Part shown: piece after piece, positions 2,871 through 56,681 of the stretch | How positions within the stretch are numbered: position 1 is the first letter of the stretch | Layout: each line of letters starts with the position of its first letter | Source of the DNA: Sulfolobaceae archaeon | Lineage (GTDB): Archaea; Thermoproteota; Thermoprotei_A; Sulfolobales; Sulfolobaceae | Direction: 5' to 3' | Length of the DNA stretch: 64,000 nt | Assembly: GCA_038893355.1 (NCBI GenBank) | Contig: JAWARQ010000004.1 | Span: forward strand, 64,001 to 128,000 | Program-made: the position numbers and the translations under genes | The notes under the pieces: generated by a model | Told to the model about the DNA's origin: nothing | Seen by the model: the letters and a program-made list of their open reading frames with translations, nothing else | The model's database searches: none

Positions 2871-4560
2871 TTATTATAATATACTCAGTCATTGAGTTTA
2901 ATATTTTTACTAATTTATCAAATCTAATTGGATCGAAAGTCATAAAACTTTCATCAACTATGAAGAATGGTATTGACGTATAATAGGCTTTTAATGCAGC
3001 AAGTATTAGAATTAACGCTATTGAGATTTTTTCTGAAGTTGCAAGTTTTCGTATTTCTAACTCTACATTATTTCTGTATACTCTTATCTTATTATTACTA
3101 TCTATTTCTACATTTAGATCAAAATCCAGCTCTTTTAAAATAATTTTAGATAGTCTTGTAAATTCTTCTCTAACAGAAGTAAGTCTTCTAATGTACTCTT
3201 TTTGGAGTTTTTCAGCCTCTTCTTCTAGGCTTTCAATTTCCCTTTTCTTCATGCTAATTTTTTCTAATATAGAAGTCGGCATGCCAAGCATTTGTAATTC
3301 ATATATATACTTATCTCTTGCAGCCCTTAACTCTTCTATCTTCTTAGTAATTACATCTTTCTGCATTTCGAAGCTAATTAAAGAATCAGATCTGCTAAAT
3401 CTTTCTTCCATTTCTCTTTTTTGGCGTTCTAGATCTCCTATCTGATACTTTAAAAGTTCAATCTTCTGTAATAACTCTTCTCTTTTACTTCTTAGTTTTG
3501 AAAGTTCACTCTGACTTTGTTCTAAATCTTTTAAGAGTTGTTCTATCTGTGTTTTTCTGGACTGCAATTCATAGATTTCTTTTGATATTTTATCATAATT
3601 GCCTTGTTTGATTCTTAACTCTTCTGTTATTTTTTCAATTCTTAATTTCCATATTGAAGGGTCTACAGTATTTCCGCATAAATAACAAGTTGTTGAATGT
3701 ACTTTATCAGCCTCTTTAAGATCTTCTAGTATCCTCTCTAATAATTTTGTCTCTACTTCTAGTGAATTTCTGTCTTTTGTTAGTACTTGTAGTGTAGAGT
3801 TTATCTTTTCAATTTCATTAAGAAGTGAATCTTTATTTATACTGGAGATTTTACTTTCTAAATTTTCTATTTCTTTATTTATTTTTTCAAGTCTTTTCTC
3901 AGTTTCTGTTAGTTCTTCTCTTTTTAGTTCTATTTTTTCTCTTAGCTCATCTAATCTATTCTTTCTAGTTGTTAGTAAAGTAGTATCAACTTTGTTTAAT
4001 AAATTAATACTTTCACTTTCTTTTTCTAATCTCTCTAACTGCTCATCTAATATTCTAATTTTTTCTTGAATCTCTAATACTTCCCTATACTCTTTTTCTA
4101 ATCTTTCTAAATCTTGCTTTGAAATTTGAAGTCTCTGTTCAATTTCATCTTTCTTCTTTTTTAACTCTTGTATCTTTGAAACTGAGGATATAAACCATTC
4201 TATATCACTATTATTTCCAATAATATGATTAACTAATCTATTCTCTGGGGAGAAGTATATTATTAAAGGATAAACTTCATCTTCTACTATCAATTTCTTA
4301 TCTTCTACTATCTTATTCTTAACTCTTCTAATCCTTCTATAATATTCCTTTCCATCAATTTTAACTTCAACATATCCTTCATCTGAAAATACATTTAACA
4401 AATCTTCTGCCTTAATGGATGATGTTAATAACGATACTAATGCTCTAGCTAGTGAAGTCTTACCGTAGGCATTTGGTGCTTTATATATTGTTACGGATTT
4501 TGGAATTTCTAACTCAAGCTCTTGTCTAATCCCACCTATATTATATACTCTTACTTTCAT
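2797..4560 (-). CDS. clsN: Archaea-specific SMC-related ATPase, coalescin (ClsN/BPS2 family)
   Basis: Variant Walker A (APNAYGKTS), long coiled coils split by a CYLC zinc hook, signature LATSEK, Walker B FFIVDE. Located near herA-mre11-rad50-nurA as in other Sulfolobales. Confidence 0.8.
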   Translation of the reverse strand: MKVRVYNIGGIRQELELEIPKSVTIYKAPNAYGKTSLARALVSLLTSSIKAEDLLNVFSDEGYVEVKIDGKEYYRRIRRVKNKIVEDKKLIVEDEVYPLIIYFSPENRLVNHIIGNNSDIEWFISSVSKIQELKKKKDEIEQRLQISKQDLERLEKEYREVLEIQEKIRILDEQLERLEKESESINLLNKVDTTLLTTRKNRLDELREKIELKREELTETEKRLEKINKEIENLESKISSINKDSLLNEIEKINSTLQVLTKDRNSLEVETKLLERILEDLKEADKVHSTTCYLCGNTVDPSIWKLRIEKITEELRIKQGNYDKISKEIYELQSRKTQIEQLLKDLEQSQSELSKLRSKREELLQKIELLKYQIGDLERQKREMEERFSRSDSLISFEMQKDVITKKIEELRAARDKYIYELQMLGMPTSILEKISMKKREIESLEEEAEKLQKEYIRRLTSVREEFTRLSKIILKELDFDLNVEIDSNNKIRVYRNNVELEIRKLATSEKISIALILILAALKAYYTSIPFFIVDESFMTFDPIRFDKLVKILNSMTEYIIITKSDETVEKVVVPKVSQVSSSEVY

Positions 4561-4706
4561 TACAATTGACCTTTTTCTTATCAGCTAAAAAATCTTTCTA
4601 TGAATTTTCCAATTATCTTATTTTATTCTTAAATATATTAATTAACTTGATATCTAATTATATAGTCTCACATTGATTTTATAATCACGTTTTAGAATGA
4701 ATTATT

Positions 4707-4841
4707 ATGTCAAAAATAGATTTCGAAGAAGTCCTAAAAAGATTAAAGGCTCTAGAGGAGAGAGTAGATGAGTTAGAAGAGGAAATTGAAAGATTAAAGG
4801 AAGAACTTGAGGAGTTAAAAGAGGAGAGGGATAGTGAATAG
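4707..4841 (+). CDS. 44-aa coiled-coil microprotein (not in the ORF track)
   Basis: [44 protein letters not shown]. Clear heptad pattern, and the 3' end overlaps the GTG start of the next gene. Confidence 0.65.
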   Translation: MSKIDFEEVLKRLKALEERVDELEEEIERLKEELEELKEERDSE

Positions 4842-5748
4842 ACCGGTGATTATAGATTCTGACACTGCAACTGATGATACTATAGCTATTTTCTTAGCTT
4901 CAAGGTTATTCAGGCTTTTGGGTATAACAATTGTAGCTGGGAACGTTCCTTATGAATTCGAATTGAGAAATGCACTATTTACAGTAGAATACTTTAATAT
5001 CAAGACTGAAGTATATCCGGGTGCAAGAAGACCTATTTTGGGGAAATGGAGATATGCTACTGAGGTTCATGGAGATGATGGCTTAAGTGGTTGGGAAGTA
5101 ACTCCAAAGATCTCATATACTAATAAATATGCACCAAAAGCCATAATTGATTTATCAAGAGAATATAGTGGTAGTTTGGAGATTCTTGCAATATCTCCTT
5201 TAACAAACTTAGCTTTAGCATTCTTAGAAGATCCTGAGATTGTAGATAGGATTAAAAGGGTTTGGATAATGGGAGGCGCATTGTATAGAGGTAATGTAGA
5301 GTTTATATCAGAATATAATTTTTGGGTGGATCCAGAGGCAGCTAATATAGTAATTTCAGCAGGTTTTAATACTGTAATAGTACCATGGGAAGTTGCTGAA
5401 AAATATGCAGTAATAACCATTGATGATTGGGAAAGAATTAAAAAATTAGAAACTAAGGCATCAAAATTTTTTATAAATGCCAATAAGAGGCTATTAGAAT
5501 ATTCGGTTAAGGTTCAAGGTGCTAATGGGAGTATTCACCCTGATTCTTTAACAGTAATAATAGCAGCATTCCCTGATATTATAAAGAGAAGTGTTAAGAG
5601 AAAGGTTGTGATAGAAACTTGTGGAATTGGAAGGGGTGGTATGTTTATAAACTGGTATGAAGCTTCAAATCAAAATTTAGAGATAGTTTTAGATGTTGAT
5701 GGTAATAAATTTAAGGAGCTGATTTTTGAATATCTTTCCTCATACTAG
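4834..5748 (+). CDS. Nucleoside hydrolase (IU-NH family)
   Basis: N-terminal D.DTATDD Ca-binding motif, plus [16 protein letters not shown] and HPD. Confidence 0.9.
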
Positions 5749-6899: not shown

Positions 6900-7736
6900 A
6901 TGAGACAAGTATTAATTTGCTTTTGGACAGTTACAGTTATATTATTTATCTCTTTTCTATTTTATAATAGTATTACAATATTCGGAGAATTTATCCATTC
7001 TATAATTGATGCAATAACGGTAAGCTTTGGTTACTTCGCTTATAGAATTTCAAAATACTCAAGTCACGTATATACTTATGGCTTACACAGATTGGAAGTA
7101 TTTTCGGCGATAGTTAATTCTATTGCGATTATTGGTGCGATGTTATTTATAACCTTTGACATAATCTATAAATTAATATTTCCATTTAATACTACGAATG
7201 GATTATTTATAGCATTAGTATCTTTTGTTTCTTTAATTATATTTTTGCCAGTTATTAAAGATAAAGAGGTTATTATAAGGGGCAAAAGTAATATTAATAT
7301 TAGAAGTATTTTTATTCATACACTTTCTGATATTATCCAATTTATAATAGGTGGTATAATTGGGCTTTTAATTGTCTTTCTAGGTCTGGAATACTTAGAT
7401 ATAATAGGTGGTGCTATAATAGCTGTTATTTCCCTATATTTTGTAATGCCATTATTAAGAGAGTCTTTTTTAATTTTAATGGAAGGGTCTCCCGTGGAGT
7501 TAGAGAAGGTTGAAACTGAACTTAGTAAAGTTGCAAAAGTTCATCATATTCACGTATGGTCAATATGTTCAGAAATAAAAGTTGCAACGTTGCATGTAGA
7601 AGCATCTCCCGAAGCAAGACTTAAAGATCTAGAAGTAGTAAGAGCAAAAATAGAGGATATATTACGAGAGAAATTTGGTATAAACCATACTACAATACAA
7701 TTTGAAGTCAACTCAACTGATCAGGCCACCAGTTAA
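6900..7736 (+). CDS. Cation diffusion facilitator (CDF) metal transporter
   Basis: HS..D, YTYG.HRLE, H..SD, HH.HVW and H.TIQ motifs, about 6 TM segments. Confidence 0.88.
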   Translation: MRQVLICFWTVTVILFISFLFYNSITIFGEFIHSIIDAITVSFGYFAYRISKYSSHVYTYGLHRLEVFSAIVNSIAIIGAMLFITFDIIYKLIFPFNTTNGLFIALVSFVSLIIFLPVIKDKEVIIRGKSNINIRSIFIHTLSDIIQFIIGGIIGLLIVFLGLEYLDIIGGAIIAVISLYFVMPLLRESFLILMEGSPVELEKVETELSKVAKVHHIHVWSICSEIKVATLHVEASPEARLKDLEVVRAKIEDILREKFGINHTTIQFEVNSTDQATS

Positions 7737-8703
7737 CTATCCGCTTTTGGTTTAAGCCTAAAATTTCAATTATTCTTCTCTTATCCTTACTACTTACTTT
7801 AACATCAGAATGCACCTTAAGAAGTGGGAAAGGATAACCTCTGATACTAATTGGCAATAGGGCATTTATAATCTCCTCTATGAATTTCTCGTCCTTCTTT
7901 CCAAATATATCAAGCCTTAATACTTTTTCATTAGAAGCTAACCTAACATAAGTAGTAGTTATATTAAATTTTTCATTATCTATTCTAATTTCACTTATTT
8001 TCGGGACAGTATATCCAATGGAATTTGTAAATGTCTCTAATATTACTATATCTGGTATTGAAAGGTTAAATAATTTGGTAGACCTGCTTATCTTAGAAAT
8101 CCATAAGATTTTATCACCAAATTTAGTTACTGCTTTTTTAATTAATTTCAATTTTTCATTTAATATTAATATTCTTATTTCTTCTTCATCGTCAACTAAC
8201 ATCTCTGAGAGTAGAGTATATACATCGTTACCCTTGTTTTCCTCATTTGAAGATATGTCTATAGACGTCTTCTCAATCTTTTTAAAGGGACTACCATCCA
8301 TTAGTATATAATCAATATTGTTTTCCTCTTTACTACTACACTCCGTCATCATTCTAATTTCTAGAAAACTCATTATTTCTCTTACAAGTTCTTTTCCATG
8401 ATTTCCAGGCCTTAATATTCCTACTATAGAATCTTTTAGTATAGGCTTCATATTATTACCTGAATAGAATAATGCTTCGGCATTAACTACATAAAGTAAT
8501 CCTACTCTCAAATCTTTGCTATACATTCCACCATCTATTGCAATATATCCCTTCTTAAGGACGGGTTTCGTTAAATTTAACTCAATCCAATTTTCTTTTA
8601 TTTTTTCCCTTAATTCTTGTCTTAACATTAAATCGTATTTATTTATTTTTTCCCTTAATTTTATATATTTATTTATTATCTTAGTATAAACTTCTTCAAT
8701 CAT
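7708..8703 (-). CDS. nurA: DNA double-strand-break repair nuclease NurA
   Basis: AIDGG, LMDGS and GYP.PL..VH motifs. Last gene of the herA-mre11-rad50-nurA operon. Confidence 0.92.
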   Translation of the reverse strand: MIEEVYTKIINKYIKLREKINKYDLMLRQELREKIKENWIELNLTKPVLKKGYIAIDGGMYSKDLRVGLLYVVNAEALFYSGNNMKPILKDSIVGILRPGNHGKELVREIMSFLEIRMMTECSSKEENNIDYILMDGSPFKKIEKTSIDISSNEENKGNDVYTLLSEMLVDDEEEIRILILNEKLKLIKKAVTKFGDKILWISKISRSTKLFNLSIPDIVILETFTNSIGYTVPKISEIRIDNEKFNITTTYVRLASNEKVLRLDIFGKKDEKFIEEIINALLPISIRGYPFPLLKVHSDVKVSSKDKRRIIEILGLNQKRIVNWWPDQLS

Positions 8704-11291
8704 TTTTCCACCTCAACCACACTACCTTCACCCTTCTTTTCTACTCTTATTACATAATCCGCAACATTTACTACTTCTTGATCATGTGATACGATTATTA
8801 TTTGAGGTATTACCTGTGATGAAAGCCTTATTATATTTAATAGTTCTTGCTTTCTATATTCATCTAGATGTACGGTAGGTTCGTCCATTATTATGAAACC
8901 TATTTCAGATAGTATTGCCCTTGCGATGCTCATCCTTAGTGCAAGTGATAATGCAACCTTCTCTCCCCCACTTAATAAGTTAACTGATAATCTTTCCCCT
9001 GAATTCATAATTGCATTTATCTGATACTTATTTTGAACATCTATTTCAGCTCTAGATATAGAAAGATCGAATTTTGAGAGAATTTCATTTAAATTATTTT
9101 CTATTATTCTTTTAGTTGCACTAATTAGATAAGCTTGCAAAGAATTTTCACCTAGTAATTCTCTGAGTTTTTCCAATTTTTTAATTGCTTGTAAAATTTT
9201 TGTTTCTTCTTTAATATTTTCTTCTAATTCTTTAATATTTTCTTCTAATTCTTTAATATTACTCTGGACTTCTAGAAGTTTTCCCTGAACTTCACCTAAT
9301 TTTGTAGATAATAAATTAATATCTTTATTTATTCTTTCTAGTTTTTCTTTTAATTTTATATATTCATCCTCGTTAAAATTTAGTTCCCTAATTCTTTCCT
9401 CAATTTCTTTCTTTTCGGAGTAAAAGTCTTCTAATTCTTTTTTCAAATTCTCTAGTTCCATTTGAGCCTTCTTCTTTCTCTCTAATTCCTTCTTCTTCTG
9501 CTCTAAATCCTCTAATATTCTTTCAAGCTCCTTCTCATCATAATTCTCGATATCCTTAAACTTGCTAATTTCTACTAGCATCTCCTCTCTCTCTTTTACT
9601 ATTCTTTCAAGCTCCTCTTCATACTCTTTAAGTTCTTCTCTACTATACCTATCTACTTTTAAATAATTCTTATAGTTTTCCTCTATCTTCTTTAAATAAT
9701 TTTCTATCTCGATATAATTCTTATAGTTTTCCTCTAATTCTTTTAATTTCTTGTTAATATTCTCGATCTCTCCTTTTCTTTTATTTATTTCCCTTTCTAA
9801 ATATCTTCTCCTTTCATCTCTTCTTCTAATTTCTTCTAACCTTAATTCTAGATTATTAATAATATTATTTATTAAATTTCTTTTTGAATTTAATTGTGAT
9901 ATTTCATTAGAAATATTATTCAATTCTTGTGTAATTTCAGAAATTATTTTGTTTTTATGTTCTATTTCAAGATCTCTACCACAAACTGGACACTTATTTC
10001 CTTTAAGCGTTGATAAGTTACTTTTAATTTTCTCTAACTCCCTCTTTCTTCCATTCTTTTCACCTATTAATCTTTCAATTTTTCCAATTTCTTCCCTTAA
10101 ATTTCTTAACTCATTTTCTAACTTATCAATATTCTCAGAAATTTCAATTTTTCCAATTTCTTCCCTTAAATTTCTTAACTCATTTTCTAAATTTTTCAAA
10201 GAATTATTAAGTAATAAATATTCTTCATAATATTTCCTAAGATTCTCTAAAATTTTAGATTTTTCCAAATATTCTTCATAATATTTCCTAAGATTCTCTT
10301 TTTCATTTAACTTATTCCTATACTCTTCTATTTTTCTCTTTAGTTCTTTAATTCTTCCTTCATACTCTTCTATTTTTCTCTTTTTTCTCTTTAATTCTTC
10401 CAAAAATTGCTTTTTAATTTTGTATTCTTCAAGTTTTTCTTCAAGCTTTTCTAGATATTCTATCCCAGTTACTTCTTTTTCTAATTCCTTTTCTCTTTTT
10501 TCTCTTTTATTTATTTCATTAATTAAATAAATATATCTTGAATTTAACTTAATATATTCCTTATATTTCTCTTCCAATTCCTTTATTATTTCATTTAATA
10601 TATTAAATTCTTTTTTCTTCTCTTCCAATTCCTTTATTATTTCAGACTCTTCTTTTACTAATTCTTCTTCCTTCTTTCTAAATTCTTCTCTTCTCTTCTT
10701 CTCTTTATCATACTCGTTTTTATAAACTTCAATTAGTTGATACTTACTTTGAAGCTGTTTTATGAGATCTTTAATGGGTCCCCTTGAATCAACTAGTTTC
10801 TCGAGTTTGTCAAGTTTAAGAACTTTTTTCATAATGTCTGGCAAATTATCAATTATTTCCTCGATTTTGCCCTGTGGTATTATGATTGTATGCAATAATA
10901 CATCTTTAGGTATTTTTATATAGTCTAAAATTTTATTATTTACCTCCCTTGCCCCTCTTACTACTGTTTTTGCTGCTTGTTGAGTAACTTCTATGAGGAG
11001 GTCATTCGATGATGCAGAGGAAGAGGTTGAAATATTACGTTTAATTATTAATCGAGAATTACTTAATTCTAAGCTCAGCTCTAATGTAGCTTCTCTTTTT
11101 CCCTTCTTTATTAAATCTTCAATTCTATTACCTCTATTATTCTCTCTAAATAATGAAAATATTATTCCATCTATTATTGCACTCTTCCCTGCACCATTAG
11201 GTCCAATAATAGCGTTTATATTCCCTTCAAATTTTATTTTAGTGTCACTATGACTTAGGAAATTCTTTAATTCTATGCTATCTATTCTCAT
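8700..11291 (-). CDS. rad50: DNA double-strand-break repair ATPase Rad50
   Basis: GPNGAGKS, Q-loop PQG, CPVCG zinc hook, LSGGE, MDEPT.HLD and VSH. Confidence 0.96.
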   Translation of the reverse strand: MRIDSIELKNFLSHSDTKIKFEGNINAIIGPNGAGKSAIIDGIIFSLFRENNRGNRIEDLIKKGKREATLELSLELSNSRLIIKRNISTSSSASSNDLLIEVTQQAAKTVVRGAREVNNKILDYIKIPKDVLLHTIIIPQGKIEEIIDNLPDIMKKVLKLDKLEKLVDSRGPIKDLIKQLQSKYQLIEVYKNEYDKEKKRREEFRKKEEELVKEESEIIKELEEKKKEFNILNEIIKELEEKYKEYIKLNSRYIYLINEINKREKREKELEKEVTGIEYLEKLEEKLEEYKIKKQFLEELKRKKRKIEEYEGRIKELKRKIEEYRNKLNEKENLRKYYEEYLEKSKILENLRKYYEEYLLLNNSLKNLENELRNLREEIGKIEISENIDKLENELRNLREEIGKIERLIGEKNGRKRELEKIKSNLSTLKGNKCPVCGRDLEIEHKNKIISEITQELNNISNEISQLNSKRNLINNIINNLELRLEEIRRRDERRRYLEREINKRKGEIENINKKLKELEENYKNYIEIENYLKKIEENYKNYLKVDRYSREELKEYEEELERIVKEREEMLVEISKFKDIENYDEKELERILEDLEQKKKELERKKKAQMELENLKKELEDFYSEKKEIEERIRELNFNEDEYIKLKEKLERINKDINLLSTKLGEVQGKLLEVQSNIKELEENIKELEENIKEETKILQAIKKLEKLRELLGENSLQAYLISATKRIIENNLNEILSKFDLSISRAEIDVQNKYQINAIMNSGERLSVNLLSGGEKVALSLALRMSIARAILSEIGFIIMDEPTVHLDEYRKQELLNIIRLSSQVIPQIIIVSHDQEVVNVADYVIRVEKKGEGSVVEVEK
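9207..10644. repeat. Cluster of exact in-frame direct repeats inside the rad50 coiled coil
   Basis: 21-bp unit x2.5 (9207-9260); 49 bp at 10073-10121 and 10142-10190; 33 bp at 10216-10248 and 10267-10299; 27 bp at 10567-10593 and 10618-10644. Confidence 0.9.
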
Positions 11292-12433
11292 TCTAGACCA
11301 CTAAATAATTTTAATAATCTTACTGTTTCTTCCTCACTTTCAGAATTGATTATTCTTAACACTAACTCAGCCTCACTTTGATTTAGTCCATTCTTCTTCA
11401 GAAAATCAACTATTAAATCGTCTATAGTACTTTTCTCTGGTATTTCTAATCTCTGTGTCCCAATTTTTATTTTTGTATTGTCTTTATATATTCTATAATA
11501 TTCAGCAATTTGATATAATTTTCTTAACTCTTTTTCAATAACTTCTCTCTTAGCTACCTCACCCTCCAATATTAGATGTAGTATTGGTTTTTTCTTTTCA
11601 CTGTTTTTATACTTATTAATAATCCTTTCAATCTCTTTATTTAAATCATTTACTAGTATTTTTTCAACTTCTTGTCTTCTAATTTCTAAATCTATCTTTT
11701 GTAAAGAAACTTCGTCATCTTTACTAAAGTCTAATAAGAATACCCCTTTGCCATCTTTTTTATAGCCTTCTATTTCTTCTTCTCTGAATATTTCTGGAGA
11801 ACCTGCTATTCCTATAAGTGACCCGTCACTATTCCTGATTACCCTTCTAGTATGAAGATGGCCTAACGCATAATATCTAAAGCCTTTGGGTAAATCACCT
11901 AACTGAATTTGCCAAGAGTATTGGTATGGCAAAAGTTCTTTGTATCCTTGATGAAGTAACAAGATACTCTTTTTACATAAAGGTTTTAGCTGTTTTAGTG
12001 CTTCCTTTAACTTTTCTGCTGAAACATAAGGATAATGTTTAGAACCATGTACACAAATTTCATCTCCATCAAATTTAAAACTATAATAATCAGTTAATGG
12101 ATTAAGAATAAGTCGAATTAAGTCTAATTCTCTTAATAAATATAAGGGATAAACATCAGTTGATCTCTTAGGAGAATCGTGATCTCCAGGGATTACTACT
12201 AATTGGATTCCTTTCTCTTTAATACGCTTTAACTCAGTATATGCAATTAATTCTGCCTTATTTGACGGATTATTAACGTCGTAGAAATCTCCACTATGTA
12301 CTATCAGCTTTACTCTTTCCTTAATTGCTATATCTATTATACTTCTAAAAGTTTGATACACATCTTCTTCTCTAAAATCTAAGTTATACTGCCTTTTTCC
12401 TAGATGTGTATCCGAAGTGTGTAGAACTAGAAT
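11288..12433 (-). CDS. mre11: DNA double-strand-break repair nuclease Mre11 (probable ATT start)
   Basis: The frame extends upstream of the ORF-track start to ATT-CTA-GTT-CTA-CAC-ACT-TCG-GAT-ACA-CAT (motif I, DTH). Other motifs: HSGD, PGDHD, LHQ, LGHLH, GSP. Confidence 0.93.
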   Translation of the reverse strand: MLVLHTSDTHLGKRQYNLDFREEDVYQTFRSIIDIAIKERVKLIVHSGDFYDVNNPSNKAELIAYTELKRIKEKGIQLVVIPGDHDSPKRSTDVYPLYLLRELDLIRLILNPLTDYYSFKFDGDEICVHGSKHYPYVSAEKLKEALKQLKPLCKKSILLLHQGYKELLPYQYSWQIQLGDLPKGFRYYALGHLHTRRVIRNSDGSLIGIAGSPEIFREEEIEGYKKDGKGVFLLDFSKDDEVSLQKIDLEIRRQEVEKILVNDLNKEIERIINKYKNSEKKKPILHLILEGEVAKREVIEKELRKLYQIAEYYRIYKDNTKIKIGTQRLEIPEKSTIDDLIVDFLKKNGLNQSEAELVLRIINSESEEETVRLLKLFSGLE

Positions 12434-13953
12434 TTTAACTCACCCATCTCTGCAATCAAATCTGCTATTTCCTTTTGCTCTTTTGCTTCTCTCCATTCTT
12501 TCATTAAATCTGGATCTGAGCCTGATAGTTTACCTTCGAATTTATCAATTTTTACTATAGCAGGAATATTTACTATTTTTCCAATTACTATTGCTTCGCC
12601 TATATCAAGACTAGATAGTTGCTCTACTAGATCCTCACTTAAATTATCGCTAGCTTCTAGTATGTATTTTTTATCACTAGGTTCGATTATTTTAAGTATT
12701 ATTTTATTAGTCATTTGACTTAGAATATTTTCATCAAGACCCTTTGGTCTTTGACTTACTATTATTAAACCAACTCCAAATTTTCTTCCCTCTCTCGATA
12801 TTCTAGACGCCCAGTATTTAGTTAAAGTATTTCTATCTCTAGATAGGAATACATGAGCCTCTTCTATAACGACTAGTACTGGATACCTTAAACCTCCTCC
12901 TCTCCATTTATTTTCCTTCCTTGCATCTAAAATTCTCCTTAAGTAATGTGAAATTACAGCATCCATTGCTTCTTCGTCGAGTTGACTAATATTGACTACA
13001 TTTACCATTCCTAGCTTTATATTATGAATTATATCTGGTGCTAGTATATCTATTACATAACCATATCTATCCTGAAAATCTTCAATTTTACTTTCAACTT
13101 CATATCTTACATCTTTATCCCTAGATATAGATTTTTTATTGTCAGATACTTTAGATAATAGAGTTTCAAAGAACTTTTTCTTTAATTCTTCAGAGTTAAG
13201 ATAACTATTCTCTCTTATAATTTTTTCAATCTCCTCTTTCGTGTCAAGGAATGCTCTTCTAAATACTCTATACTGTTTAAATGCATTTTCTCTAATTTCT
13301 AAAAGTACTGCAAATTCTCGTGGATTTAGATGTAAAGGATTCAATTTTGGGTTTATAACATTTAAATATTTCATATTACTATCATAATATTCACCGTGAA
13401 AATCAAAGATTACCACACACCCACCATTTTCTGCAATTCTTTGTGATAGAACTGCTACTGCGTTAGATTTTCCAGATCCAGTAGCTGCAAGTATTGCTAA
13501 ATGTCTAGTTAAATAATTAGGATTAATACTTACTTCCACATCACTTCCAATAAGCTTACCTATCTTTATATTTCCATTTTCGAAAATTCTCTGTAGTTCT
13601 TCCTTCGTAGCTAGCCTAACTGGCGTCCCTGGTGGCGGGGGCAGTTCTACTCTTTCACATGAATTATTATCTATTAATTTACAAATAATTTTTATTTTTG
13701 CCTTAATATACTCCTTAATAGATTCTGGAACTTGGATCTCTCTCATTTTTTCGATTACTTCCACATCTGTTACAGTTTCATTAATTATATTACTACTAGA
13801 ATTTAATGAAACTATTAAACCAAGGACTTTGCTATTATCATATTCTAAAATTACATAAATACCACTCCTAATTTTATTTCGATGTTTTACTATCATTAAA
13901 GCAGATTCTACAGTTGATGAACCTATAGTATATCCTACTATAACTTTTGTCAT
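12427..13953 (-). CDS. herA: Bipolar DNA helicase/translocase HerA
   Basis: N-terminal HAS barrel, AATGSGKS, IEEAH, REGRKFG and SQRP. Confidence 0.95.
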   Translation of the reverse strand: MTKVIVGYTIGSSTVESALMIVKHRNKIRSGIYVILEYDNSKVLGLIVSLNSSSNIINETVTDVEVIEKMREIQVPESIKEYIKAKIKIICKLIDNNSCERVELPPPPGTPVRLATKEELQRIFENGNIKIGKLIGSDVEVSINPNYLTRHLAILAATGSGKSNAVAVLSQRIAENGGCVVIFDFHGEYYDSNMKYLNVINPKLNPLHLNPREFAVLLEIRENAFKQYRVFRRAFLDTKEEIEKIIRENSYLNSEELKKKFFETLLSKVSDNKKSISRDKDVRYEVESKIEDFQDRYGYVIDILAPDIIHNIKLGMVNVVNISQLDEEAMDAVISHYLRRILDARKENKWRGGGLRYPVLVVIEEAHVFLSRDRNTLTKYWASRISREGRKFGVGLIIVSQRPKGLDENILSQMTNKIILKIIEPSDKKYILEASDNLSEDLVEQLSSLDIGEAIVIGKIVNIPAIVKIDKFEGKLSGSDPDLMKEWREAKEQKEIADLIAEMGELKF

Positions 13954-51860: not shown

Positions 51861-52292
51861 CTATTTCATAGTTATTGATAATGTTATTGAAGGTGGTGTT
51901 GCTGAAATATTTATTGTAATACTATCTATACCTATTTCTTTTATATTTAATTTTATTTTCATTATAATTTCACTAACTGAATATGACAGTATGTTTACAA
52001 TTTCATCGATAATACCAGCTATCTTACTACCCACTAAAGTACTAGAAACTTCCGGTCTCAAGAGAAACCAGTAAATTGCATTAGTTCTTTGTAATATTTG
52101 AAATAAATTAGATAATAGTCCCTCCCATTTTTTCTCTTCAAAGTTTTTTTCCGTTTGAATAAACAACTCTAGTTCTTTTTCTAACTCTCTTTTTAAAAAT
52201 TTCATAATATTCTGCTCTTGTAGAGATAGCGAAGTTTCAGGGATTTCATCAACTTTTCTTTTTAACTCCTCAAGATACTTAATAGAGTTCAT
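51861..52292 (-). CDS. Hypothetical helical protein
   Basis: 143-aa ORF divergent from the second nurA-herA operon and co-oriented with pgi/pmi and cysS. Confidence 0.55.
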   Translation of the reverse strand: MNSIKYLEELKRKVDEIPETSLSLQEQNIMKFLKRELEKELELFIQTEKNFEEKKWEGLLSNLFQILQRTNAIYWFLLRPEVSSTLVGSKIAGIIDEIVNILSYSVSEIIMKIKLNIKEIGIDSITINISATPPSITLSITMK

Positions 52293-52417
52293 AAATATAG
52301 TTAACGATCATTTAATAAAAGCTCTATTATAGTTATACTTTGTTATTTAGGGTATTACGCTTTTGGTATTACATCATATTTAAATATTTCTATAAAGAAT
52401 TTCGATATGAAAAACAG

Positions 52418-53548
52418 ATGAATTACAGTGATATCTATGAATTACTTGGTAATATTGTATCAAATTACATTACTAATTATCTAATAGGAAAGCCTATAGT
52501 TCAACATGAAAGTATCGTTGAGCTAGAAGACGTAGATGAGAGTAATGATAGTATTTTTCTTCTAACATCGCCTAAAGAGATCTTAAAAGAAATCGTTGAA
52601 GATAGGCAAGAAGTAGGAGAAGAGATTATTGCAATTGATGGTAGTAGTAGAAGCTTAGTATTAATGAGTGGAATAATAAGTATTAGTGCAGTTGCTGCAT
52701 ACTCATCTAAATTAGGCAGTATAGAAGTTTATCCACCGTTATATGGAATGAGGAGTCTTAAGATAAATGCACCGTTTATTGCAATATCACCTTTTTATAA
52801 ATATTCTTCTAATAGTCTTGATCCATACATCTATTCCTCAAAGTTCATAATGACAACTTCATTAGACGGTTCTTTATTAATAGGCAATGATCCTATTAAA
52901 GTTGAAGCACAGTTAAGATTTATTTTAGAAACTGAGGCATTAAATTATCTTAAAGATAAAAAGTATATAATTATTGACGGACCACTTTTACCTTCGTTTC
53001 CAAATTTCAAGAATAGTTTAAGGAATAAATTCTTTGAGATTAGATCTAAGAGTCTTAGCGCCGGAACTTTAGGAATAGTTAAAAGATTAGAGAAATCAAA
53101 GCTTCTAATTAGCGTATTGTCTCGATATAGGGATGAGGTAATTAGTAAGTATAAAATTGACCCATTAAGATATCTCTCGGACGAATCATTACTATTCAAT
53201 ATAATAAGGTTTAACGAAGTTCCACCGTATAAAAAGTTTTTGGTGGGACCTATATTAAAATTAATAGACAATACTAAAATTTATATTAACTATTTAATTA
53301 TTCCTATTCATCCATTTCTATCAAAATTTTTTATATTAAGAATTGAAAGTTTAATTAATAGTGATAAATTATTAAGTTTAATTTCTAATTTAAAATTTAC
53401 TGCTGATGGTGTTCCTAACGTTATAGCAATAGCTGATAAGACATCTAAAATAGTTACAAGCGGTTTACTTAGATTTGTAAAATCATTATTAGAGAATTCG
53501 GGTGTGAATATTAGTTTTACATCACGAATAGAGGCTGTAGATTTATGA
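52418..53548 (+). CDS. Second NurA-family nuclease
   Basis: IAIDGSS, R..LE, IIDGPL, GIVKR, SD and G.P..IAIAD. Start placed at ATG 52418. Confidence 0.8.
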   Translation: MNYSDIYELLGNIVSNYITNYLIGKPIVQHESIVELEDVDESNDSIFLLTSPKEILKEIVEDRQEVGEEIIAIDGSSRSLVLMSGIISISAVAAYSSKLGSIEVYPPLYGMRSLKINAPFIAISPFYKYSSNSLDPYIYSSKFIMTTSLDGSLLIGNDPIKVEAQLRFILETEALNYLKDKKYIIIDGPLLPSFPNFKNSLRNKFFEIRSKSLSAGTLGIVKRLEKSKLLISVLSRYRDEVISKYKIDPLRYLSDESLLFNIIRFNEVPPYKKFLVGPILKLIDNTKIYINYLIIPIHPFLSKFFILRIESLINSDKLLSLISNLKFTADGVPNVIAIADKTSKIVTSGLLRFVKSLLENSGVNISFTSRIEAVDL

Positions 53549-55344
53549 TAGATCTTCATAATATGGTAAGAGATAGAGTTCAAAAAGCTAAAGCACTAGC
53601 AATAACTTTAGGTACTATAATAGGCTATGTTGCACGACATATACCTAGTAGGCTTGATAACGAAGAATCTTATGTGAAGGTCGTAGTGAGTCCCGATGTC
53701 TATTATAATTTTAATTTTATAGGCAAATTAGGTATAATTCTGGGTGCAATTGACATAAAAACGTTATACTTTGTTTTACTAAGAGTTGTAGGATATGAGA
53801 GATTCGATGCAACATCATTTTTGTACTCAGATAGTTCTTTAGCTACAATTTCAAATGTCGATGAGGAACCTGGTTCCTTGCTGACAAATACTATATTAAA
53901 ATGTGAAATGTTAACTAAAATTGACCCTTTAAATTCAAAGGAGCCGGAGGTTGCAGATATAGTTCTTGAACCTCAATCACCTGTAATAATACCTAAGCCA
54001 GATTTAGTTGAAAGGGCATTAAATTTAAGTAATGGCGATATAAAAATAGGATTTTTAGATATTCCAGGTATAAATGCAAAAGTTTCTATAAATTCATACG
54101 ATCTAAACTACCATATGATAGTCATCGGAACTACTGGTGCTGGAAAGACGTCTTTTATAAAAAACTTAATTATGGCAATGGTAAATAGCCGTAGTAGAAG
54201 TAAGGTATTTATATTTGATGCTACTGGTGATTATTACAACATATTTCTTCCTCCTGAGGTATATAATAATGAACATGAGGAGCTGTTAGGTTCTAGAATA
54301 TTTAATCTCGAAGTAAATATTCTATTCCCTATATCATCAAAATGGGCTAAAAAGTATTTAAAAAATAACAAGAGAGACGTATACAGTATTGCGTCTGTAT
54401 ATTATTTATTATATATAAAACCAATAATAGATTATTTACAAAATAAAGGCTTAAAATTATATTCAACTATAAATAAAAACAGTATAATAATTTCAAATAG
54501 CGAATGGAATGGCAAGGCTAATATACTTCCTTTTTACTTTAGATTTAAGGATGTTAAAAGGATCCTACATAAACTTAACCCATACTTCACAGAGCAAGCT
54601 TCACATTTTCTTAGGATTTTAATTAATAAGAACTGGAGTGAATTTAAGAAGATTGATGATTTAATTAATTTTGTATTAGATGAAGATAAATTTGAAAATA
54701 TTCGTATTCATAGAAGTACTAGGGAAAATATAGTTAGAGGGTTGTATCTTCTAAAAGAAACTGGATTATTTAACATCGGTGTAGATAGATATCCGTTTTC
54801 CTCACTTTTAGAGAATAATAACATTCAAATAAATATTATAGATTTATATAATAGTGAAATTGACGACTTTGCACAAAAGATATTAAGCTACTACTTCTTA
54901 GATAAGATTTTTAATTATAGAGAAAAAGAAATGAAGAGTGGTGGGGTAAAAGATAGGATAGTAATTGTAATAGATGAGGCCCATAGATTCTTTCCTTCAA
55001 GTAAGGGTAGTGAAGAGGATAATACTTATGTTAGAAGAGTTGCTAATAAAATCTCGACATTAATGAGACTAGGGAGGCGTAGAAAAGTCGGCTTTATTTT
55101 CTCCACTCACAATCCTAATGATTTAAATGATATAGTAATACAACTATCGAATACTAAAGTAGTATTTAGGACAAAGCCTGAGATAGCCGAATCTTTAGGC
55201 CTCTCGAAAGTAGAGGCAAGAAATTTAAGCTGGGAAAGGAATGGTGTAGCTTATCTAATTTCTCCATGGTTAAGAGAGGGAAAAATTAAGATTAGAATTC
55301 CATTACCACCAGCTATAGGTCATTATGATTTATCAAGAACATAA
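53545..55344 (+). CDS. Second HerA-family (DUF87) ATPase
   Basis: HAS-barrel-like N-terminus, GTTGAGKT, FD.TGDY, IDEAH and R.GR. Confidence 0.88.
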   Translation: MIDLHNMVRDRVQKAKALAITLGTIIGYVARHIPSRLDNEESYVKVVVSPDVYYNFNFIGKLGIILGAIDIKTLYFVLLRVVGYERFDATSFLYSDSSLATISNVDEEPGSLLTNTILKCEMLTKIDPLNSKEPEVADIVLEPQSPVIIPKPDLVERALNLSNGDIKIGFLDIPGINAKVSINSYDLNYHMIVIGTTGAGKTSFIKNLIMAMVNSRSRSKVFIFDATGDYYNIFLPPEVYNNEHEELLGSRIFNLEVNILFPISSKWAKKYLKNNKRDVYSIASVYYLLYIKPIIDYLQNKGLKLYSTINKNSIIISNSEWNGKANILPFYFRFKDVKRILHKLNPYFTEQASHFLRILINKNWSEFKKIDDLINFVLDEDKFENIRIHRSTRENIVRGLYLLKETGLFNIGVDRYPFSSLLENNNIQINIIDLYNSEIDDFAQKILSYYFLDKIFNYREKEMKSGGVKDRIVIVIDEAHRFFPSSKGSEEDNTYVRRVANKISTLMRLGRRRKVGFIFSTHNPNDLNDIVIQLSNTKVVFRTKPEIAESLGLSKVEARNLSWERNGVAYLISPWLREGKIKIRIPLPPAIGHYDLSRT

Positions 55345-55756
55345 AAGTTTCTATATTTCTACTTATATTATGCTTAGCGAAATTATAGCCCAGATAAAAA
55401 GAAAATGGTCACGAGAAGCTGTACTCAAGTTTTTAAACGAGGTAAGAAGCCTATTGCCACCTTCAGAGGATTTTGGAATATCCTTAATTAAGAAAGGAGT
55501 TCATGAATACGTTTTAGATAAACAAGGCATTGTAATAATTAGCTTAAATCAAGATGAGTATTTACCTTTCTTTGCAGCAAGGGGAAAAAGGATAGATTTA
55601 GAAAAACTTTCTGATGATATATTACTTGAAATTAGTAAAAATTGGAGGAATATAATTTCCCAATTAAGGGACATTTTATTGGAATATGGAAGGAGAGATG
55701 ATAAATATCTGAAAGTTGCAGAAGAAATCACAGGGATAATATTTGAAAATATCTGA
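55325..55756 (+). CDS. Hypothetical protein
   Basis: Overlaps both the HerA paralogue and the downstream thioesterase. Confidence 0.55.
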   Translation: MIYQEHKSFYISTYIMLSEIIAQIKRKWSREAVLKFLNEVRSLLPPSEDFGISLIKKGVHEYVLDKQGIVIISLNQDEYLPFFAARGKRIDLEKLSDDILLEISKNWRNIISQLRDILLEYGRRDDKYLKVAEEITGIIFENI

Positions 55757-56681
55757 AACTATAGTAACTACTTATAAAATTGTACATTACAGTGATATTA
55801 ACTTCTTAGGAAGGATGCATGGCGGAGTAATGTTAATGGGATTAGTAGATGCAGGTATGTTATCTGCAATGAAAGTTGCAAAATCTTTAGCAGTATTAGC
55901 TTCTCTAGATGAAGTAGAGTTTAAAAAACCGGTAAATTTGGGAGACGTTATAGAATATAAGGCCCAGGTTGAATATATAGGAAATTCCTCTATGGAAGTT
56001 AGGATTAAAGCGTACAAGTATAATGAAGAAATTGTTACCGCGACTTCATCGTTTGTTAAAGTTAATGAACTTCTTAAACCAATTCCGATTAATGAAAAAA
56101 TAGAAGTTGAGAATGATGAAGATAAGAATATTTTAATTGAGGCTCTAGAAAGAAGGAGAAGAAGAGAGAAATTAATAGCTGATAGGCATAGAAAGAAGTT
56201 AGATACTTCCGATCCTACAGAAGGATTAAGGTATAGAATTTCTACGATAGTTCAAGTCACTCCAGAGCTGACATATAATGGCAAACTGATGTCTGCAGGG
56301 AAGTTACTTAAAATTATGGATGATATAGGCGGAATTATTGCTCATAGATATATAGGTTATCCTTTCTTAACTAAAGATAATACAGTTACTGTTGCAATTT
56401 CCGATACACAGTTCTTTACACCAGCTAGATTAGGAGATATATTAAATATTAGAGCTGGGATCATTTATGTTGGGAATACATCCCTAGATGTTTTAATAAA
56501 TGTAATAAGGCAGAATTCTAGTAGCAATGAAATAACACATGTAACTACTTCGTATTTCACTTATGTAAGAATTAATGAAAATGGCAAACCTACGAGATTA
56601 CCAGAATATAAGCCTCAAACTGATAAAGAAAAATTCTTTTACGATCTGTCATTAGAGAGAAGAAAAAAGAATTATACCTAA
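55743..56681 (+). CDS. Double-hotdog acyl-CoA thioesterase
   Basis: D.N..G.MHGG, F..PV..GD and G.SSMEV. The domain is repeated. Confidence 0.88.

Follow-up and report, generated by a model that had tools for sequence, protein, structure and literature searches.

Crenarchaea hold several modules in which a NurA nuclease is paired with a HerA ATPase, and biochemistry has been limited to the one linked to Mre11-Rad50. Pyrobaculum species are described as having three or more paralogous nurA-herA pairs, one of them tied to csm6 and to CRISPR arrays (PMC3396285), and a ‘Cas HerA/Cas NurA’ together with the type III-coevolved clusters 57/58 have been catalogued (PMC3973734, PMC6546367). The stretch analysed here (the window) comprises 64,000 nucleotides (nt) of a Sulfolobaceae archaeon (positions 64,001 to 128,000 of contig JAWARQ010000004.1; genome G000, an assembly that is 84% complete) and encodes a second such pair, NurA2 (52418–53548, plus strand) and HerA2 (53545–55344, plus strand).

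A preliminary description of the window had presented this pair as an undescribed system. That does not hold: its probable orthologues appear in papers on regulation and paralogous pairs are catalogued in Pyrobaculum (PMC3396285), so that the pair has been noticed previously in model Sulfolobus species and is of a kind that is known but biochemically uncharacterized. What has been published on the S. islandicus and S. acidocaldarius pair (SiRe_0094/0095 and saci_0148) concerns, in the parts of the papers that treat it, regulation by Csa3a and aCcr1 and not function (PMC5587795, PMC9976892, bioRxiv 10.64898/2026.09.06.749720). A search of the open-access literature, including by the tags SiRe_0094/0095 and Saci_0146-0149/SiL_0094-0095, returned no biochemical or genetic study of the second pair. 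The description of a distinct, uncharacterized nuclease-translocase stands, given the divergence of the pair and the finding that HerA2 is neither CedB nor CedD. We favour, with a probability of about 0.6, a nuclease-translocase module of two genes that is of old origin, has been passed on vertically, stands apart from the HerA-NurA linked to Mre11-Rad50 and acts primarily in housekeeping on the chromosome.

Catalytic signatures and divergence of NurA2 and HerA2

The canonical herA-mre11-rad50-nurA operon occupies 7708–13953 of the window, its genes having their best NCBIfam matches to the Thermoproteota/Sulfolobales HerA, Mre11, Rad50 and NurA models. Since this operon is present in the same window, the PF09376 and PF01935 genes found 38 kb from it (~40 kb from canonical herA to HerA2) are a genuine second NurA-HerA pair, as first described. 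NurA2 and HerA2 overlap by 4 nt, and this spacing suggests an operon.

NurA2 (376 amino acids, aa) belongs to the NurA family of RNase H/PIWI-fold nucleases and matches PF09376 with 58.9 bits (cut-off 21, E = 7e-16) over profile positions 2–254 of 254. Four acidic residues are invariant in an alignment of 22 sequences (A1): D74 (IAIDGSS), E171 (LETEAL), D187 (DGPL) and D340 (ADKTSK). The aspartates of both DG motifs are retained, and the fourth catalytic position, a His in the canonical D-E-D-H set, is the invariant Asp D340; both features had been read from the window sequence at the outset. The superposition of D340 on the C-terminal His of canonical NurA is tentative. It is suggested mainly by a shared G-x-P...(H/D) motif, with a profile alignment (hhalign, against a single canonical NurA) serving as a pointer, its probability of 0.55% being statistically weak. 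The catalytic residues of P. furiosus NurA are D51, E105, D126 and H411, and D660 of TtAgo occupies the position of the His (PMC3300031). Because TtAgo has Asp at this position, catalysis by NurA2 is still plausible; D-E-D-D would be an Argonaute-like, all-acidic metal-binding set, compatible with two-metal catalysis. A BLAST comparison of NurA2 with canonical NurA gave no significant match, a structure-database search matched no solved structure, and the NurA2 proteins of relatives are ~32–42% identical to the window copy.

HerA2 (599 aa) is a HerA/FtsK-type P-loop ATPase that matches PF01935 (DUF87) with 59.5 bits (cut-off 23.2); its closest solved structure is found at E = 5.6e-7. At 599 aa it is 91 aa longer than canonical HerA (508 aa), in agreement with the ~90 aa given earlier. 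The Walker A motif is GTTGAGKT and the Walker B motif DEAH, and across 30 HerA2-type sequences GTTG[AS]GKT and DEAH are invariant. A conserved RLGR motif aligns with REGR of canonical HerA (the 30 sequences plus the canonical one), the arginine of which we take to be a trans-acting finger. The replacement of SQR by STH, first noticed in the window copy, proves general, with [SA]TH in all 30 HerA2-type sequences. The C-terminal GHYD tail is also conserved (H[YF]D in 29 of the 30, L040 being without it). In this alignment the motifs of the motor are retained and the sensor-like QR is altered throughout. That the STH-type motif replaces SQR in every one of the 30 sequences could mean that HerA2 is catalytically impaired and that the pair is a passive DNA-binding or regulatory complex. 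However, variation across families is absent or nearly so in Walker A, Walker B (DEAH) and the RLGR arginine, and the four acidic residues of NurA2 are invariant in their alignment; since the catalytic motifs have been conserved over the long term, activity of the pair is favoured and impairment is highly improbable.

The pair, which has no adjacent mre11 or rad50, is deeply diverged from the canonical one, as had been proposed. HerA2 and canonical HerA are 28–32% identical, and this similarity is confined to a pair of short blocks, around Walker A and Walker B. On the NCBIfam model NF040937 (HerA_Thermprot) HerA2 scores 56.7 bits against a cut-off of 800, whereas the canonical HerA of the window reaches 748, and on NF040819 it scores 44.8 bits (cut-off 970). 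Scores on the anti-phage HerA models NF042943 and NF042944 are 40.2 (cut-off 800) and 17.6 (cut-off 850), and those on the CedB and CedD models 33.6 (cut-off 700) and 50.7 (cut-off 600). The genome has its own CedB (C2:155705-157468, 776 bits, cut-off 700) and a CedD-like gene (C1:82721-84313, 578 bits, just under the cut-off of 600). HerA2 was rejected as CedB or CedD on its sub-cut-off scores and the presence of these genes elsewhere in the genome. A recent duplication of the canonical genes was likewise rejected, on the low HerA identity, the missing NurA BLAST match and a tree that separates the HerA2 clade (below).

Seven DUF87-type ATPase genes lie above the Pfam cut-off in G000, together with one weak sub-threshold match (an ABC-type ATPase open reading frame, ORF). 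There are three NurA genes, and NurA2-HerA2 is the sole bare nurA-herA pair. The third NurA gene belongs to a module outside the window (L089, G000:C2:214050-220522) that encodes a HerA-like protein of 543 aa (PF01935), proteins of 1023 and 235 aa, and a NurA of 356 aa (PF09376); its genes are co-directional and closely packed, either overlapping slightly or separated by no more than 11 nt. The 1023- and 235-aa middle proteins have no match in Pfam, NCBIfam or PADLOC. Given these two unknown middle genes, the L089 module is the less explained NurA-HerA system of this genome.

Conservation of the pair and of its neighbouring genes

HerA2 is matched in all 24 other genomes of the same family (48–62% identity) and in 30 of 41 genomes overall (E ≤ 1e-10). 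In a wider draw at E ≤ 1e-30 it is found in 38/38 Sulfolobaceae genomes and in 89/201 genomes of the class. Orthologues occur in Sulfurisphaera, Saccharolobus, Sulfolobus, Stygiolobus, Acidianus, Metallosphaera, Sulfuracidifex and others, annotated just as ‘ATP-binding protein’, ‘ATPase AAA’ or ‘DUF87 domain-containing protein’. More distant full-length relatives in other families are ~30–36% identical. At all 13 distant loci from such families (L037-L041, L093-L100), the HerA2-type gene (575–704 aa) is directly preceded by a co-oriented gene of 353–424 aa (in L094, an ORF of 455 aa). Eleven of the 12 upstream genes that were scanned match PF09376, L094 being outside the scan; the remaining one, that of L037, has no PF09376 match yet shows the same four invariant acidic residues in the alignment. 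NurA2 and HerA2 are direct neighbours in all genomes examined, which span at least eight families.

A phylogeny had been suggested as a check on the distinctness of HerA2. In a quick maximum-likelihood tree of 27 rows (the window copy, 8 of the 24 family orthologues, 12 distant sequences and six HerA/FtsK paralogues of G000, with the other 16 family orthologues and L094 excluded), all 21 HerA2-type rows group together with a Shimodaira-Hasegawa-like approximate likelihood ratio test (SH-aLRT) value of 99, apart from the six paralogues. This clade comes from the quick search, the careful one being unfinished, and the paralogue branches are long.

The surroundings of some distant loci are worth recording. 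In three loci of family f11 (L096, L099, L100) the pair is divergent from a small DHH-family phosphoesterase gene, followed by a histone-deacetylase-family gene, and on the other side lie genes for a CDP-alcohol phosphatidyltransferase and an AP_endonuc_2 protein (xylose-isomerase-like TIM barrel); this arrangement may be plain synteny. In L093 (10022–13126) a gene downstream of the HerA2-type gene encodes a radical-SAM protein of 1035 aa, into which an intein bearing a LAGLIDADG domain is inserted.

In the window, the pair is flanked on the minus strand by cysS, a phosphoglucose/phosphomannose isomerase (PGI/PMI) gene and orfA (51861–52292, minus strand), and downstream by orfB (55370–55756, plus strand), an acyl-CoA thioesterase gene (55743–56681, plus strand) and a cupin gene. 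The gene set of the preliminary description (a NurA ORF, a HerA ORF, a 143-aa ORF, a thioesterase and a divergent 143-aa ORF) is present as listed. In most relatives cysS, PGI/PMI, NurA2, HerA2 and the thioesterase are syntenic. The chain of overlapping genes that had been described is correct for NurA2/HerA2 (4 nt) and for the orfB stop and thioesterase start (14 nt), but HerA2 and orfB overlap only if orfB is read from ATG 55325 (143 aa). Its start is most likely ATG 55370 (128 aa), where the orthologues begin, which leaves a gap of 25 nt after the HerA2 stop.

The two small genes had been taken as dedicated to the pair, orfB as a possible accessory subunit, and conservation of their neighbourhood was proposed as a check. 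For orfA (143 aa, unknown family) the result is negative. It lies at least 1.39 kb from NurA2 in 20/20 relatives in which both genes were detected (tblastn, 24 family loci), and a gene for a ~440-aa pyridine-nucleotide-disulphide oxidoreductase (Pfam) precedes NurA2 in 11 of the 12 loci for which ORFs were listed, orfA not being found by tblastn at 3 of these 11. The copy of this oxidoreductase gene in the window genome is on another contig (C2:19267-20583, 60% identity) and is absent at 52293–52417. orfA abuts NurA2 in the window because the oxidoreductase gene sits elsewhere, the divergent arrangement having been made by rearrangement; the orientation reported earlier is therefore correct here, but the adjacency is confined to the window genome. 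In most relatives orfA overlaps or abuts PGI/PMI, and on gene order it appears to belong to the PGI/PMI-cysS side, transcribed with or towards it, rather than to the NurA2-HerA2 unit. The AlphaFold2 model of orfA (predicted local distance difference test, pLDDT, 93.5) is a four-helix bundle with a C-terminal beta-hairpin, and a fold search gave just generic four-helix-bundle rows (best E 0.12).

orfB belongs to an uncharacterized small-protein family of Thermoproteota and has no match in Pfam, NCBIfam or PADLOC. Its AlphaFold2 model (pLDDT 88) is arranged as helix2-strand4-helix3. Foldseek against the PDB gave no match at E ≤ 0.001, the best VIA-align hit (Z 6.1, root-mean-square deviation 3.2, 86 aligned residues) is below the noise level stated for the tool, and an Atlas search returned only unnamed archaeal clusters. 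The predicted fold bears a weak, non-significant resemblance to PUR-alpha-type nucleic-acid-binding repeats. A search of 1.84 billion representatives with an orfB profile gave 20 proteins at E ≤ 0.001, all of 123–148 aa bar one of 904 aa; in the latter 14 short stretches are matched, probably a repeat artefact, and no informative fusion was found. The thioesterase (312 aa, double-hotdog) matches PF03061 in two stretches (E = 4.3e-23) and is YciA-like in NCBIfam, below the cut-off; it is a neighbour without an evident link to DNA processing.

Could orfB, and perhaps orfA and the thioesterase, be accessory subunits of a dedicated four- or five-gene machine built on NurA2-HerA2? Within the family the gene order is suggestive: tblastn finds orfB in 23/24 family loci, and in 22 of these no more than ~380 nt separate it from the HerA2 stop; an independent pattern scan places it within the same distance in 14/16 loci. 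In G010, moreover, the thioesterase has moved 184 kb away, yet orfB still lies 72 nt from HerA2, and the PUR-alpha-like resemblance of the predicted fold, though non-significant, would suit a nucleic-acid-binding partner. Other genomes separate the genes differently. In G008, HerA2 is at 1139733-1141508, ~124 kb from the overlapping orfB and thioesterase genes (C1:1014314-1015613), and in G020 orfB is 1.8 kb from HerA2. At none of the 13 distant NurA2-HerA2 loci do the ORF lists hold an orfB-sized co-directional ORF after HerA2, and tblastn found neither orfB nor the thioesterase in L037-L041; at the locus, orfB is confined to Sulfolobaceae. Conversely, a profile search finds orfB-family genes in 45/401 genomes of the phylum, in several families; the 14 distant orfB-family loci inspected show neither HerA nor NurA in the 1.5 kb on either side, and a HerA2 match at E ≤ 1e-5 is lacking in four of five orfB-family genomes tested. 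Together with the separation of orfA from NurA2 in all 20 relatives, these observations make a dedicated machine quite improbable. orfB is probably a neighbour translationally coupled to whichever hydrolase follows it, a dedicated subunit being unlikely, and probably none of orfB, the thioesterase and orfA is a dedicated subunit of NurA2-HerA2.

In genus g11 a gene for a metallo-beta-lactamase (MBL)-fold hydrolase (PF00753) follows orfB after 0–3 nt (L034 of G010, 3606–4937; L036 of G020, 8556–9933), with the thioesterase gene elsewhere; behind orfB, one hydrolase could have taken the place of another.

Promoter, orthologues and probable role

The start of NurA2 had been listed as TTG 52340, a choice that the comparison with relatives does not bear out. 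The NurA2 orthologues align (tblastn) at the earliest from residue 11–35 of the TTG-52340 ORF, mostly from ~25, and a conserved TATA-like box, TTTAAATA (52379–52386, plus strand), falls inside this longer ORF ~32 nt 5' of ATG 52418. TTG 52340 was rejected because it would swallow the promoter (52340–52417 being conserved as such) and because orthologues align further in; the start is therefore placed at ATG 52418.

Two direct copies of GGTATTAC (52351–52358 and 52365–52372, plus strand), 6 nt apart, precede the TATA-like box. They resemble the aCcr1 box, AGTATTA / TGTATTAT (PMC9976892), and the second ends 6 nt 5' of the TATA box, at the expected position of the TFB-recognition element (BRE), so that a repressor on these repeats would cover the BRE. 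GGTATTAC occurs seven times in the window against 1.99 expected, a number reached in 0/100 shuffles; the five further sites are at 8806, 17312, 20684, 22577 and 63816. GTATTA or TAATAC is present within 120 nt 5' of NurA2 in 18 of 21 orthologous upstream regions. By eye, ATATTTAAATA is present in 16 of the 21 and the box lies 3–5 nt 5' of it in 15, often as an inverted pair GGTAATAC-N5-GGTATTAC. These regions come from related genomes and the motif counts are not independent. The non-coding motif is retained across genera despite NurA2 identities of ~32–42%.

The window pair very probably has as its orthologues SiRe_0094/0095 of S. islandicus and saci_0148 of S. acidocaldarius, because it is the sole bare pair, lies at a matching distance from canonical herA and shares the promoter box. 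In four genomes of genus g8 the distance from canonical herA to HerA2 is 26–28 kb, fitting the gap of ~30 locus tags. SiL_0094-0095/Saci_0148 is reported to carry a ccr-2 (aCcr1) box and to go down on aCcr1 overexpression (PMC9976892), and a 2026 preprint finds aCcr1 at the ‘nurA (saci_0148)’ promoter, among the strongly down-regulated genes (bioRxiv 10.64898/2026.09.06.749720). Csa3a binds the SiRe_0094 promoter and SiRe_0095 HerA protein rises, and the authors propose that the pair supplies DNA fragments or prespacers for spacer acquisition (PMC5587795).

By analogy with the canonical complex, a HerA2 ring would use ATP and thread DNA into a NurA2 dimer, which would degrade it by two-metal catalysis; the complex might thus process DNA ends or branched intermediates independently of Mre11-Rad50. 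Since the box-like repeats adjoin the TATA box over the BRE position, aCcr1, a cell-cycle repressor, could shut the operon off, and Csa3a could switch the probable orthologue on in S. islandicus. The role would be a housekeeping one in chromosomal DNA metabolism, possibly also including prespacer DNA production, with recruitment to CRISPR systems in some lineages. The housekeeping setting is suggested by the fixed syntenic position of the pair, its universal presence in the family and the lack of nearby cas genes, CARF genes or a tandem array: the seven genes scanned around the pair include neither a cas nor a CARF gene, and no tandem array is present in the 64-kb window.

A different role is suggested by the defence-system profiles of PADLOC, where the best matches of both proteins are to ‘Type III coevolved’ profiles: HerA2 scores 162.3 bits on the HerA profile PDLC01055 (E = 4.8e-48) and NurA2 32.1 bits on the NurA profile PDLC01056 (E = 1.9e-8), no curated cut-off being supplied for either. 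Distant members of the clade score 149–239 bits on the same HerA profile. The pair might then serve in defence or as an accessory of CRISPR, akin to the type III-coevolved ‘Cas HerA/Cas NurA’, by breaking down the DNA of invaders or by providing prespacers, in keeping with the binding of Csa3a to the probable orthologue's promoter and the proposed prespacer generation (PMC5587795) and with the CRISPR-linked nurA-csm6-herA of Pyrobaculum (PMC3396285). One HerA2-clade pair (L098, G157:C5:39913-54240, at 7992–13705) indeed lies ~1 kb from a gene for a 504-aa Csx1_CARF protein (E = 3.7e-27), with a PaREP1 gene also present.

However, L098 alone of the distant loci inspected has a CRISPR-linked context, and the neighbours at 11 of the 12 others are non-cas genes (Pfam scan or ORF inspection). 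G000 encodes another HerA-type ATPase (L090, G000:C5:154560-156302, 580 aa) that has no adjacent NurA and scores 150 bits on PDLC01055. Matches to the ‘Type III coevolved’ HerA profile are thus not limited to genes with a CRISPR link. The presence of the pair in 38/38 Sulfolobaceae at a fixed syntenic position is unlike patchy defence islands, and the scanned surroundings in the window hold neither cas nor CARF genes nor an array. Cas1 is found in just 36 of 47 family genomes, and in G021, a closed genome that is 99% complete, the pair is present without a Cas1 match; the missing Cas1 (PF01867) match in the 84%-complete G000 assembly is itself uninformative, as CRISPR regions often assemble poorly. 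A primary defence role is on this evidence unlikely, though it keeps a real minority share of the probability.

Several points weigh against an active housekeeping module. The change from SQR to STH removes the glutamine and arginine that are conserved in canonical HerA, and none of the 16 Pfam matches listed at E ≤ 0.1 is to a HAS-barrel family, as would be expected for the N-terminus of a canonical HerA. The best defence-library profiles are the type III ‘coevolved’ HerA and NurA, which with the position of L098 beside Csx1 makes a defence role possible, and Csa3a regulation of the probable orthologue is reported in the literature. orfB stands beside HerA2 in 23/24 family loci, G010 included despite its moved thioesterase, so that a lineage-specific accessory role is possible. 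The orthology to SiRe_0094/0095 and saci_0148 is drawn from annotation wording, gene order, distance and the promoter box, not from named records, and a report of activity, complex formation or a phenotype of the pair was not found in the open-access literature.

A bolder form of the housekeeping reading, which we regard as rather doubtful, would make the HerA2-NurA2 clade a cell-cycle-gated chromosome-processing machine of Thermoproteia, repressed by aCcr1 through the BRE-overlapping boxes and acting independently of Mre11-Rad50 on intermediates of replication termination, segregation or recombination. The machine would have been recruited repeatedly to CRISPR systems (Csx1-linked, Csa3a-regulated), and the PUR-like orfB would be a lineage-specific nucleic-acid-binding adaptor of Sulfolobaceae. 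As the pair is conserved family-wide, bears catalytic signatures of its own and has a conserved promoter linked to a cell-cycle repressor, it is a well-defined genetic target in S. acidocaldarius or S. islandicus.

Comparison with known systems

The window adds a clean description of the clade and takes the small neighbouring genes out of the model; no new type of system is revealed. Among the closest known systems is the canonical HerA-NurA of S. solfataricus, P. furiosus and T. kodakarensis. Both pairs consist of the same families (PF09376 and PF01935) encoded together, and the second pair keeps the D-E-D part of the NurA site and the Walker A and B motifs of HerA. It differs in having no neighbouring mre11 or rad50, in Asp for the catalytic His, in STH for SQR, and in a HerA2 that is 91 aa longer and for which a HAS-barrel Pfam match is not listed.

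With the bacterial anti-phage Sir2-HerA and DUF4297-HerA and the archaeal CedB/CedD, HerA2 shares the HerA/FtsK-type P-loop ATPase core, but its partner is NurA and not Sir2, DUF4297 or membrane Ced proteins. The CRISPR-associated nurA-(csm6)-herA of Thermoproteales and ‘Cas HerA/Cas NurA’ resemble the pair in that they provide its top PADLOC profiles and in that the Csx1-linked L098 falls within the HerA2-type clade, whereas the window pair is a fixed core gene of its family with no cas gene, CARF gene or array near. The SiRe_0094/0095-saci_0148 pair is probably of the same orthologous group, likewise a bare nurA-herA with an aCcr1-box-like promoter motif, some tens of genes away from the canonical operon. 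A difference is that the window lineage has lost from this place the oxidoreductase gene that relatives carry ahead of NurA2.

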